Source of the DNA: a virus | Lineage: Duplodnaviria > Heunggongvirae > Uroviricota > Caudoviricetes | Reading direction: 5' to 3' (one strand) | Virus record (IMG/VR): IMGVR_UViG_2554235189_000007 | DNA: 10,967 nucleotides | Part shown: piece after piece, positions 590-830 of the stretch | Numbering within the stretch: position 1 is the stretch's first letter | Layout: each line of letters starts with the position of its first letter | Position numbers and translations under genes: made by a program | Notes under the pieces: model-generated | Database searches by the model: none | Seen by the model: only the letters and a program-made list of their open reading frames with translations | What the model was told of the DNA's origin: nothing

Positions 590-624
590 TCTGTCCCCCT
601 CTCCTGTCTGATGTCTGAATCTGT

Positions 625-662
625 TTATGCCAGAAAACAACAGGCACCCCGGAGGGTGCCTG
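625..662 (-). terminator. Putative rho-independent terminator on the minus strand, just upstream of J
   Basis: Perfect 9-bp GC-rich stem (641-649 caggcaccc / 654-662 gggtgcctg) with 4-nt loop cgga. On the minus-strand RNA it is followed by UUGUUUUCUGG (plus 625-640). It sits 3 nt after the stop of the small ORF at 665..784. Confidence 0.45.
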
Positions 663-664
663 TG

Positions 665-784
665 TCATGACGGAATAAAATTTCTGAAACTCTTCACATT
701 TCCGGCAATTGCCTGTAGCCGCAATAATGACGCTGCATTACTTTTTTGATGCCTGAAAAATAACTCCATAACGTTAATCTTCAT
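665..784 (-). CDS. Small hypothetical protein (39 aa), candidate moron ORF in an AT-rich island between I and J
   Basis: ATG at 784..782 preceded by GGGAGA with ~5 nt spacing; TGA at 667..665. Translation MKINVMELFFRHQKSNAASLLRLQAIAGNVKSFRNFIPS. Region 665-790 is visibly AT-rich compared with the flanking GC-rich genes. Followed directly by the 625..662 hairpin. Below the ORF-track length cutoff; no homology recognised. Confidence 0.3.
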   Translation of the reverse strand: MKINVMELFFRHQKSNAASLLRLQAIAGNVKSFRNFIPS

Positions 785-791
785 CGTTCTC

Positions 792-830
792 TCCCGCAGC
801 TCCGCTAACTCTGCGGGATTTTTTTATTTT
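792..830 (+). terminator. Strong intrinsic-terminator-like hairpin plus T-tract on the plus strand, abutting the stop codon of gene I
   Basis: 8-bp stem 792-799 tcccgcag / 811-818 ctgcggga, 11-nt loop, followed by tttttttatttt (819-830). On the minus strand this reads as an A-run followed by the hairpin, so it is oriented to stop plus-strand (antisense) transcription. Confidence 0.5.

Follow-up and report, generated by a model that had tools for sequence, protein, structure and literature searches.

An island between tail genes I and J of a Shiga-toxin-type prophage carries EcOnc22, an Hfq-binding small RNA gene of the PasB family

The spacer between tail genes I and J of a Shiga-toxin-type prophage holds a small RNA (sRNA) gene that has already been described, the Hfq-binding sRNA gene EcOnc22, which is the EHEC allele of the EPEC sRNA PasB and lies opposite to the tail genes. 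We analyzed a window of 10,967 nucleotides (IMG/VR record IMGVR_UViG_2554235189_000007), in which gene I (1507..830, minus strand, stop codon TGA at 832-830) and gene J (minus strand, GTG start at 589, extending beyond the window end) are separated by 240 nt (590-829). Taken as a whole, this island very probably consists of two parts, the EcOnc22/PasB cassette and a late-strand hairpin before J (Table 1).

The original prediction had pointed to an AT-rich segment of about 240 bp at this junction, which is real and needed only small coordinate corrections. G+C content is 44.6% across the spacer and 40.4% in its sub-part 664-829, compared with 57.2% for the whole window and about 59.5% for the flanks together (59.4% in the J part, 1-589, and 59.7% in gene I). 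Three terminator-like sites were found between 400 and 1100, against 0.6 expected from shuffled sequence; the two terminator hairpins of the island point outwards, and the island also contains two mechanical ORFs, each roughly 40 aa long. The prediction had also stated, correctly, that lambda has a short I-J spacer (60 nt in lambda-type loci), and had read the island as a phage moron made of a small ORF and a terminator. Relative to lambda (60 vs 240 nt) the island is indeed an accessory insertion with atypical composition and its own terminator, but the proposed ORF-plus-terminator unit did not hold up, the small ORFs being broken in most relatives (see below). It was the alternative offered alongside, that the island encodes a small RNA, that proved correct: the hairpin with the T7AT4 tract is the terminator of EcOnc22/PasB.

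The island is identical at all 240 positions to the I-J spacers of the Sakai prophages Sp15, Sp14, and Sp11. Table S2 of Tree et al. 2014 (PMC4104026) lists EcOnc22 in Sp15 and its homologues EcOnc23 in Sp14 and EcOnc24 in Sp11, all on the plus strand, and that study detected EcOnc22 as an RNA of about 85 nt on Northern blots, recovered it by Hfq CRAC, and found it destabilized in a delta-hfq strain. Expression in the lysogen and Hfq-dependent stability are thus reported for a sequence identical to that of the window (Tree et al. 2014, PMC4104026). We found that the Hfq-CRAC peaks of all three RNAs fall within the corresponding I-J spacers. The coordinates in Table S2 refer to NC_002695.1 and are offset by about 139-143 nt (+) from NC_002695.2, as revealed by using AgvB as a control, which also confirmed that the strand convention of Tree et al. 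2014 holds; after correction, the CRAC peak maps to approximately 752-816 (+) of the window. Because of this offset, we used the sequence of the published Northern probe to fix position and strand. The probe aligned to the minus strand of the window with a score of 28 and to the plus strand with a score of 11, and the RNA it detected is therefore the plus-strand transcript. No late-strand Hfq peak is listed for the I-J spacers in Table S2 of Tree et al. 2014 (PMC4104026). EcOnc35 in Sp4 was considered as a late-strand partner and rejected, as it is not located at an I-J junction. Since the three Sakai copies are identical, expression is not assignable to any one of these prophages, and the source of the window allele may be a strain or prophage other than the Sakai loci: over 361 nt the junction matches phage Stx1_14040 at 100% and VT1-Sakai at 99.7% identity.

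The same RNA has been described in EPEC under another name. PasB is an 83-nt, Hfq-dependent sRNA with 37 RIL-seq interactions, encoded on the minus strand of NC_011601 (1466343..1466261) and detected with the probe AATCCCGCAGTGATCGCGGAGCT (Pearl Mizrahi et al. 2021, PMC8550237). We located PasB in the 240-nt I-J spacer of prophage PP6 of E2348/69, antisense to I and J, with its annotated 3' end at the last T of the T7 run homologous to that in the window. We built a covariance model from 17 relatives, with the PasB of E2348/69 among them and the window allele left out; the model matched over its full length at 735-825 (+) of the window with 74.5 bits (E 1.6e-12); this was the sole significant match, the next having an E-value of 3.6. 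The window allele and PasB share 86% identity over 74 aligned positions, with three indels. They have in common their position in the I-J spacer, their strand, and a terminator stem followed by a U7 tail, and PasB shares with EcOnc22 the conserved pre-terminator block, a length of roughly 83-85 nt, and, from the published work, dependence on Hfq. They differ in the 5' half, which diverges, and in the promoter, which reads TTCACA-N16-TATAAT in the PasB allele and has a degenerate -35 element in the window. The PasB row of Table S6 of the EPEC study (PMC8550237) has no note tying PasB to EcOnc22, and a preprint on PasB (Zhu, Shabalina and Storz 2026) never mentions EcOnc. EHEC EcOnc22-24 and EPEC PasB are one family under two names, and the two literatures are joined here. 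Scans of the window and five related loci against Rfam, at gathering and at permissive thresholds, gave no family and only chance-level matches (E at least 1), so assignment to the family relies on the primary papers. A 2021 review gives no target for EcOnc22, and the window allele has no published function or validated target.

Table 1. Coordinates of features in and around the I-J spacer of the window.
Feature	Position	Strand	Remarks
J leader	587..629	-	TCAGACA heptamer twice, 618-605; SD GGAG 604-601 / GGGGGA 599-594; GTG start 589-587
Competing 40-aa ORF	627..749	+	mechanical ORF
Intrinsic-terminator-type hairpin B	630..663	-	stem 663-640, tail TGTTTTCTGG 639-630
39-aa ORF of the original prediction	665..784	-	mechanical ORF; its SD and ATG are antisense to the sRNA body
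Candidate CRP-like palindrome ATTTCTGAAACTCTTCACATTT	680..701	+	upstream of the sRNA promoter
Putative -10 hexamer AATAAT of the sRNA promoter	723..728	+	TATAAT at the homologous position in relatives
sRNA gene, EcOnc22/23/24 allele of the PasB family	735..825	+	runs opposite to the late (tail) operon
Target of the published EcOnc22/23/24 Northern probe GGGAGAGAACGATGAAGATTAACTGATGAGTTA	761..795	+	probe = window minus strand 795..761
Most conserved single-stranded block TTAATCTTCAT, candidate seed	774..784	+	alignment of 22 alleles
Intrinsic terminator of the sRNA (hairpin A)	793..830	+	stem CCCGCAG 793-799 / CTGCGGG 811-817, 11-nt loop 800-810

The predicted RNA folds with -20.3 kcal/mol (z -4.1); it combines a 5' U-run and an A-rich stretch of the ARN type (AAAAAUAAC) with a block that is conserved and single-stranded (UUAAUCUUCAU) and a hairpin at the 3' end that carries a U7 tail. 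The prediction of a plus-strand hairpin with a T7AT4 tract adjoining the stop codon of gene I was borne out. A scan calls a plus-strand terminator here, the hairpin folds with -13.2 kcal/mol (z -4.0), and its stem is followed by A818, T7 at 819-825, A826, and T4 at 827-830, such that it overlaps the I stop codon (830-832). Across 22 alleles the stem is invariant except for one G-to-T change in a single allele, and the loop varies in sequence and length; there is no covariation among these alleles because the stem does not vary. By homology with the annotated end of PasB, the 3' end of the window RNA would be the last T of the T7 run, and its 5' end probably lies near 735, where transcription would also start. 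Counting from the -10 element predicts 91-98 nt, more than the published 85 and 83 nt; processing of the 5' end, or a position of this end further downstream, might account for the difference. Conservation between alleles covers the 3' two-thirds of the RNA, and within the block at 774-784 A777, T778, C779, T780, T781, and T784 are invariant and T774 and A776 nearly so in the 22 alleles. This block is a plausible seed, as a PasB seed has been proposed directly upstream of the terminator (Zhu, Shabalina and Storz 2026 preprint).

A sigma-70 promoter scan of the window returned nothing above threshold on either strand, and the evidence for a promoter thus comes from the relatives. At the homologous position they carry TTCACA-N16-TATAAT, which matches the sigma-70 consensus at 11 of 12 positions and is directed at terminator A; in the window allele the -10 hexamer is kept and the -35 region (TTCCGG, at about 700-705) is poor. 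The CRP-like palindrome is the sole window match to AAATGTGA-N6-TCACATTT at three or fewer mismatches, a level also reached by 8 of 200 shuffles, and matches 13 of the 16 specified bases. Among 13 distinct relatives the two half-sites never change, and the spacer between them varies. The center of the site lies at about -44.5 from the presumed start, which is not a canonical position (-41.5, -61.5, or positions in phase), and control of the sRNA promoter by CRP would be one possible role for it.

The second part of the island belongs to the late strand. A minus-strand hairpin with a U-rich tail had been predicted to end about 35 nt before the J start; the hairpin is present, but its tail ends 40 nt before that start. 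Hairpin B has a stem of 10 pairs, seven of them G-C, a 4-nt loop, and a fold of -22.7 kcal/mol (z -5.2). Pairing is kept in 98.5% of cells across 13 distinct sequences; one pair shows a compensatory CG-to-UA change (in five sequences) and two wobbles pair only on the late strand, and covariation thus supports hairpin B as an RNA hairpin of the late strand. Hairpins of other sequence occur at this position in lambda-type (60-nt) and 336-343-nt spacers. Like hairpin B, the lambda hairpin is G+C-rich, lies on the late strand a short distance ahead of the J ribosome-binding site, and has a U-rich tail; it differs in its unrelated sequence and in filling the lambda spacer alone, with no sRNA cassette. 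Hairpin B belongs to the late-operon strand, and because a comparable hairpin occupies the lambda spacer at the same position, we do not take it as evidence for an ORF-plus-terminator unit and read it as an ancestral element of the I-J spacer. In the J leader just downstream, the number of TCAGACA heptamers varies among relatives, with four copies in one allele.

Comparing I-J junctions showed that the spacers fall into classes of 60, 234-260, 336-343, and 848-851 nt, and the junction is therefore a variable insertion site. The comparison, which the original prediction had called for, confirmed that the island is variably present and at the same time showed that the small-ORF frame is lost in 22 of 26 distinct alleles of about 240 nt. 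Among 5426 complete E. coli genomes, 802 contain the island, at a median of three copies and up to nine; no feature is annotated under the match in the 40 records among the matches listed. In the 848-851-nt class, found in some related prophages, the junction carries sodC (Pfam Sod_Cu, 3.9e-32) on the same strand as the PasB-like body and directly upstream of this body and terminator A, in place of hairpin B, the CRP-like site, and the promoter. sodC is a classic lysogenic-conversion gene. Like phage morons (Juhala et al. 2000; e.g. prophage sodC-F1/F2), the island is extra DNA between conserved late genes: it is variably present between the same two genes, differs from its flanks in G+C content, has its own terminator (793-825), and is expressed in the lysogen according to the published work; a promoter of its own is predicted from the near-consensus site of relatives. 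The island differs in its cargo, which is a non-coding RNA and not a protein gene. AgvB and AsxR are likewise short, Hfq-bound RNAs of lambdoid prophages that combine a variable 5' part with a conserved 3' part and a terminator, and a C/A-rich stretch at 631-645 (+) had raised the suspicion of a relationship. This candidate was rejected: AgvB and AsxR differ in sequence and lie at the moron site downstream of PR', not in the tail operon, and their Rfam models had no match in the window.

The preferred reading of the island, sRNA cassette plus late-strand hairpin, has to be weighed against other accounts of its content and origin. We give very little credence to a protein-coding moron, in which the 39-aa ORF (784..665) is translated and its message ends at the terminator at 663-640. 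The ORF does exist, with GGGAGAG 6 nt before its ATG and a terminator downstream on the late strand; three other alleles retain a 41-aa frame ending ...FIPS, and one phage record annotates a hypothetical protein in the region, at another position and in another frame. As moron cargo, however, the ORF fails on conservation, a frame of 39-41 aa being kept in only 4 of the 26 alleles: many of them have ACG or ACA in place of the start codon, and others are frame-shifted or truncated to 12, 17, 22, or 31 aa by indels that are not multiples of three. The search of the peptide against protein families gave no Pfam match and nothing meaningful in PHROG (a chance-level match only), the window scan provides no late-strand promoter, and none of the 40 RefSeq records among the matches listed annotates a gene here. 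The competing plus-strand ORF exists as predicted but is equally unconserved, a comparable ORF with different starts and ends occurring in 4 of 26 alleles, and it too had no Pfam and no meaningful PHROG match. The position of sodC suggests a different origin, compatible with an sRNA, in which the island is a relic left by loss of a sodC-type cassette and the sRNA derives from the downstream or 3' UTR region of that cassette. We regard this as improbable: although sodC does precede the PasB-like body and terminator A on the same strand, it has a strong terminator of its own before the PasB-like segment, the dedicated promoter of the 240- and 342-nt classes is absent from the sodC class, and insertion of sodC into a pre-existing sRNA cassette fits at least as well.

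In our working model, the first module (approximately 664-829) would be a self-contained sRNA cassette inserted right after the stop codon of gene I and facing against the late operon, with an AT-rich region containing the CRP-like palindrome, a sigma-70 promoter, an sRNA of about 85-91 nt, and a terminator at which antisense transcription would stop precisely where gene I ends. The sRNA would be made in the lysogen, from the repressed prophage, and be bound and stabilized by Hfq, as the papers indicate for this family; most likely its mode of action is base-pairing in trans with mRNAs of the host and of prophages. The second module, hairpin B, would be an ancestral terminator-type element ahead of J that either stops RNA polymerase not modified by the antiterminator Q or stabilizes the upstream message, and would be read through in Q-driven late transcription.

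Two other functions would explain parts of these data. The sRNA could be a cis-antisense element that pairs with complementary I-J late mRNA from its own, a co-resident, or a superinfecting prophage and leads to cleavage or altered expression of J. Full complementarity to the I-J part of the late transcript (an SD/ATG-like region at 784-795 included), the multiple copies per genome, and the conserved 3' two-thirds of the RNA are all consistent with this. It nevertheless appears unlikely as the principal function, because PasB has trans partners in RIL-seq (PMC8550237) and late transcripts would vastly outnumber the sRNA during induction. A variant, a type I toxin-antitoxin-like pair with the late-strand small ORF, drew on the antisense overlap with SD and ATG and was rejected, since the ORF is not conserved and the peptide has no hydrophobic stretch on inspection of its translation. 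Alternatively, the island could be a passive structured spacer or insulator whose outward terminators shield I and J, the RNA being a by-product, as the two strong outward-facing hairpins and the presence of a late-strand hairpin before J in lambda and other spacer classes might suggest. We consider this very unlikely: relatives have a near-consensus promoter directed at terminator A, the RNA reaches levels that Hfq CRAC, RIL-seq, and Northern blots can detect and is Hfq-dependent in the published work, and the single-stranded block is invariant across diverged alleles. A bolder extension, rather unlikely in our estimate, is that the cassette, beyond its role in trans, is a nutrient-responsive (cAMP-CRP) antisense brake or processing signal on the tail-tip gene J. 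This idea follows from combining the antisense position with several diverged alleles per genome (variable 5' part, conserved 3' block) and possible CRP control.

The island recurs, unannotated, in Shiga-toxin-type lambdoid prophages and has no Rfam model, and its recognition as an EcOnc22/PasB sRNA gene avoids mis-annotation as a small protein. The analysis further shows the I-J junction to be an insertion hot spot that receives either the sRNA alone or the sRNA together with sodC. It offers modest leads in the conserved CRP-like site, the allelic variation at the 5' end, and the perfect complementarity of the sRNA to the late mRNA. If a brake on J does exist, it might act across co-resident or superinfecting lambdoid phages and so constitute a form of inter-prophage interference.

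The window comes from among the tail genes of a lambdoid prophage of the Stx type, and its I-J junction (361 nt) is 100% identical to that of phage Stx1_14040 and 99.7% identical to that of VT1-Sakai. The AT-rich segment of about 240 bp described in the original prediction proved to be a spacer with 44.6% GC (40.4% in its 664-829 part), compared with 59.4% and 59.7% in the flanking coding sequence. The plus-strand hairpin with a T7AT4 tract adjoining the I stop (terminator A) and the minus-strand hairpin with a U-rich tail (hairpin B) were likewise recovered, as were both of the small ORFs noted there. 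Within 400-1100, a terminator scan found three terminator-like sites, versus 0.6 expected, and the T4 run of terminator A runs into the I stop codon. Taken as its longest ORF, gene I overlaps K by ~100 nt (window 1405-1507); this is probably an ORF-finder artefact, because I begins later in the Sakai RefSeq record, where it is 579 nt long and overlaps K by 4 nt. The J leader carries two tandem copies of the heptamer TCAGACA (window 605-618, minus strand), placed after hairpin B and before the Shine-Dalgarno sequence; a relative (L050) has four, so the copy number varies.

Features of the I-J junction and flanking genes in the window
Feature	Coordinates	Strand	Details
K	2148..1405	minus	
I	1507..830	minus	
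J	GTG start 589	minus	continues past window end
I-J spacer	590-829		240 nt
39-aa ORF	665..784	minus	ORF finder
40-aa ORF	627..749	plus	ORF finder
Terminator A	stem 793-799/811-817	plus	11-nt loop, T7 819-825, then A, T4; -13.2 kcal/mol, z -4.0
Hairpin B	stem 663-640	minus	10 pairs, tail TGTTTTCTGG; -22.7 kcal/mol, z -5.2

The island encodes a small RNA that has already been described, as EcOnc22/23/24 in EHEC and, as an allele, PasB in EPEC. An Rfam scan gave no match, and our first suspicion, AgvB, was ruled out, as AgvB and AsxR sit at the PR' moron site. Hfq-CRAC identified three homologous peaks, all on the + strand, in Sakai prophages Sp15 (EcOnc22), Sp14 (EcOnc23) and Sp11 (EcOnc24); EcOnc22 (2902714-2902774) measured ~85 nt by Northern and was destabilised in delta-hfq (Tree et al. 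2014 Table S2, PMC4104026). Its target was listed as unknown in a 2021 review. The published coordinates refer to an earlier sequence version than NC_002695.2, in which AgvB, whose sequence is known, lies ~139-143 nt further along on the strand stated in the table, indicating that the strand column is valid. After this offset, the EcOnc22 peak corresponds to window ~752-816 (+), and in NC_002695.2 all three RNAs fall in I-J spacers, belonging to three prophages in minus orientation; each spacer is 240/240 identical to the window island. The Northern probe used for EcOnc22/23/24, GGGAGAGAACGATGAAGATTAACTGATGAGTTA (Tree et al. 2014, PMC4104026), aligns to the window minus strand at 795-761, with two single-base gaps and one mismatch that probably stem from PDF text extraction. 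It follows that the RNA seen on the Northern is a plus-strand transcript that runs antisense to the tail genes, and the probe match is an independent confirmation of the position and strand of EcOnc22. Together with the 240/240 identity, it bears out the suggestion, originally offered as an alternative to a protein-coding moron, that the island encodes a small RNA.

The EPEC allele has been mapped to the minus strand of NC_011601 (1466343..1466261, 83 nt, prophage PP6, probe AATCCCGCAGTGATCGCGGAGCT), with 37 RIL-seq interactions listed in its row of Table S6 and a stability that depends on Hfq (Pearl Mizrahi et al. 2021, PMC8550237). In E2348/69 this interval falls within the 240-nt spacer that separates the gene for the tail assembly protein from that for gpJ; it is antisense to both, and its 3' end is the last T of the T7 run after the same CCCGCAG...CTGCGGG stem. 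A covariance model was built from 17 relatives, PasB among them, leaving out the allele of the window and the relative closest to it. This model matched window 735-825 (+) over its full length (74.5 bits, E 1.6e-12), with no other significant match in the window. PasB and the window allele are 86% identical and differ by three indels that cluster in the 5' half. Given its orientation, the sRNA might act as an antisense RNA on the late message across I and J, in cis or between prophages, a reading that we regard as improbable.

Read 5' to 3' in the sense of the sRNA, the alleles consist of an AT-rich block, a promoter, a 5' GCGUUA, a run of U6-9, a variable segment and an A-rich stretch common to all, followed, again in common, by UUAAUCUUCAU (window 774-784) with its invariant AAUCUU core, a linker that is short and variable, and terminator A, whose stem is invariant and whose loop ranges from ~10 to 16 nt. 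The RNAalifold consensus structure of the alleles is the terminator helix alone, without covariation in that helix, and the window sRNA folds at -20.3 kcal/mol (z -4.1). Two related loci (L101 and L060) carry TTCACA-N16-TATAAT (11/12) pointing at terminator A, and inspection of the E2348/69 sequence revealed the same motif. The window keeps AATAAT at 723-728 with a poor -35, and no site passed in a promoter scan of the window. The expected start near 735 gives an sRNA of 91 nt; because the published sizes are ~85 and 83 nt, the true 5' end may lie slightly downstream or be generated by processing.

Directly upstream of the sRNA promoter lies a CRP-like palindrome, ATTTCTGAAACTCTTCACATTT (window 680-701, +), which matches 13/16 specified consensus positions. 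No second site of this kind occurs in the window, and 8/200 shuffles reach the score of the palindrome; both half-sites are invariant across 13 distinct relatives, and the 6-nt spacer between them varies. PasB levels are reported to be higher under the non-activating growth condition (Pearl Mizrahi et al. 2021, PMC8550237), which is compatible with CRP control. The centre of the site, at about -44.5 from the inferred start, is a non-canonical position for CRP, and we infer only that CRP might control the sRNA. The non-activating condition in the PasB work was reportedly LB, not glucose-rich DMEM.

To place the island among its relatives, we retrieved 116 loci that encode relatives of the N-terminal part of J and located in each the stop codon of I and the start of J. 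The I-J spacers form four classes by length: 60 nt (lambda type), 234-260 nt (the window's type, 26 distinct sequences), 336-343 nt and 848-851 nt. Comparison of the junction found the island in some relatives and the short spacer in lambda-type loci; relative to lambda, the island is an insertion. Its sequence occurs in 147 phage records, nearly all from Stx-converting or related E. coli phages, and in 802/5426 complete E. coli genomes (median 3 places per genome, maximum 9); among the 40 genome records listed, no annotated feature lay under the match. In one genome (H116, NZ_CP027323.1 1837275-1837951) the match is split into two pieces over 677 bp, indicating a ~440-bp insertion within the island. 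Many I-J loci of lambda or EHEC-prophage type (L003, L005, L008-L016, L018-L023, L028-L031 and others, from genome_contigs) carry unrelated organism labels, including Streptomyces, Bacillota and Clostridiales MAGs, Bradyrhizobium and Shewanella; these are mostly short, low-coverage contigs and look like contamination with lambda or E. coli DNA.

The original prediction had the 39-aa ORF as the cargo of a moron, and this part did not hold. Across the 26 distinct ~240-nt alleles, its ATG is ACG or ACA in many, its centre contains indels that are not multiples of three, and its frame stops elsewhere after 12, 17, 22 or 31 codons, so that a 39-41-aa frame is kept in only 4/26. The plus-strand 40-aa ORF is likewise found in only 4/26, with differing starts and ends, and Pfam and PHROG searches with both gave no meaningful match; the small ORFs are not genes. 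In the record of phage 1720a-02 (L001 1528-1680, KF030445.1), the end of gene I and the sRNA terminator are overlapped by an annotated hypothetical protein of 50 aa; it differs from the 39-aa ORF in both position and frame and was probably called automatically. In the broad sense of an accessory, separately transcribed insertion, the moron reading stands. Members of the 848-851-nt class (L039 ~840-1370, on the minus strand of that locus, as well as L042, L067, L094, L097 and relatives) carry a Cu,Zn superoxide dismutase gene, sodC (Pfam Sod_Cu, E 3.9e-32), which lies antisense to the tail genes and has a terminator of its own, and prophage sodC-F1/F2 genes are known in O157. Here sodC replaces the J-proximal part, comprising hairpin B, the CRP-like site and the sRNA promoter, and a PasB-like body and terminator A still adjoin gene I. 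This class supports the proposal that the junction takes up accessory DNA, as a hot spot for insertions, and shows that such cargo runs on the antisense strand. The 336-343-nt class (L060, L116, L003, L102) also has the sRNA cassette and CRP-like site, with ~170 nt of unrelated sequence where hairpin B would be.

Hairpin B is an RNA hairpin of the late transcript, in the form of an intrinsic terminator, because its pairing is kept (98.5% of cells in 13 distinct sequences; slid controls all <50%), one pair switches from CG to UA in five of the 13, two positions change to G-U or U-G and stay paired on the late strand only, and the U-rich tail TTGTTTT is conserved. In the 60-nt lambda spacer (L037, L017 and others of lambda type), a single late-strand hairpin ending in a U-rich tail makes up essentially the whole sequence (-15.5 kcal/mol; AAACCGCC-TGCG-GGCGGTTT, also AAACCGCC-TGCG-GGCGGTTTTGTC), and the 336-343-nt class has, within its ~170 nt of unrelated sequence, an equally unrelated 18-bp late-strand hairpin (AAAACCCCGGTATC...GATACCGGGGTTT, -27.1 kcal/mol, z -9.1). 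Of the four spacer classes examined, three have a terminator-like hairpin in front of J, and the sodC class showed none. Since these other spacers also carry late-strand hairpins, we read hairpin B as a putative generic I-J element. The sRNA cassette would have been inserted between the I stop and hairpin B, which might stop unmodified polymerase and let Q-modified polymerase through, or might instead stabilise the message.

Table S6 ties PasA and PasD to EcOnc names and its PasB row carries no homologue note (Pearl Mizrahi et al. 2021, PMC8550237), and EcOnc is absent from a 2026 preprint by Zhu, Shabalina and Storz; the equivalence of EcOnc22 and PasB therefore seems to be unstated in that row or in the preprint. 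To the published description of this sRNA, our analysis makes a minor addition: it equates the two names, sorts the alleles and spacers into classes, points to a candidate CRP site, and interprets the island as two modules.
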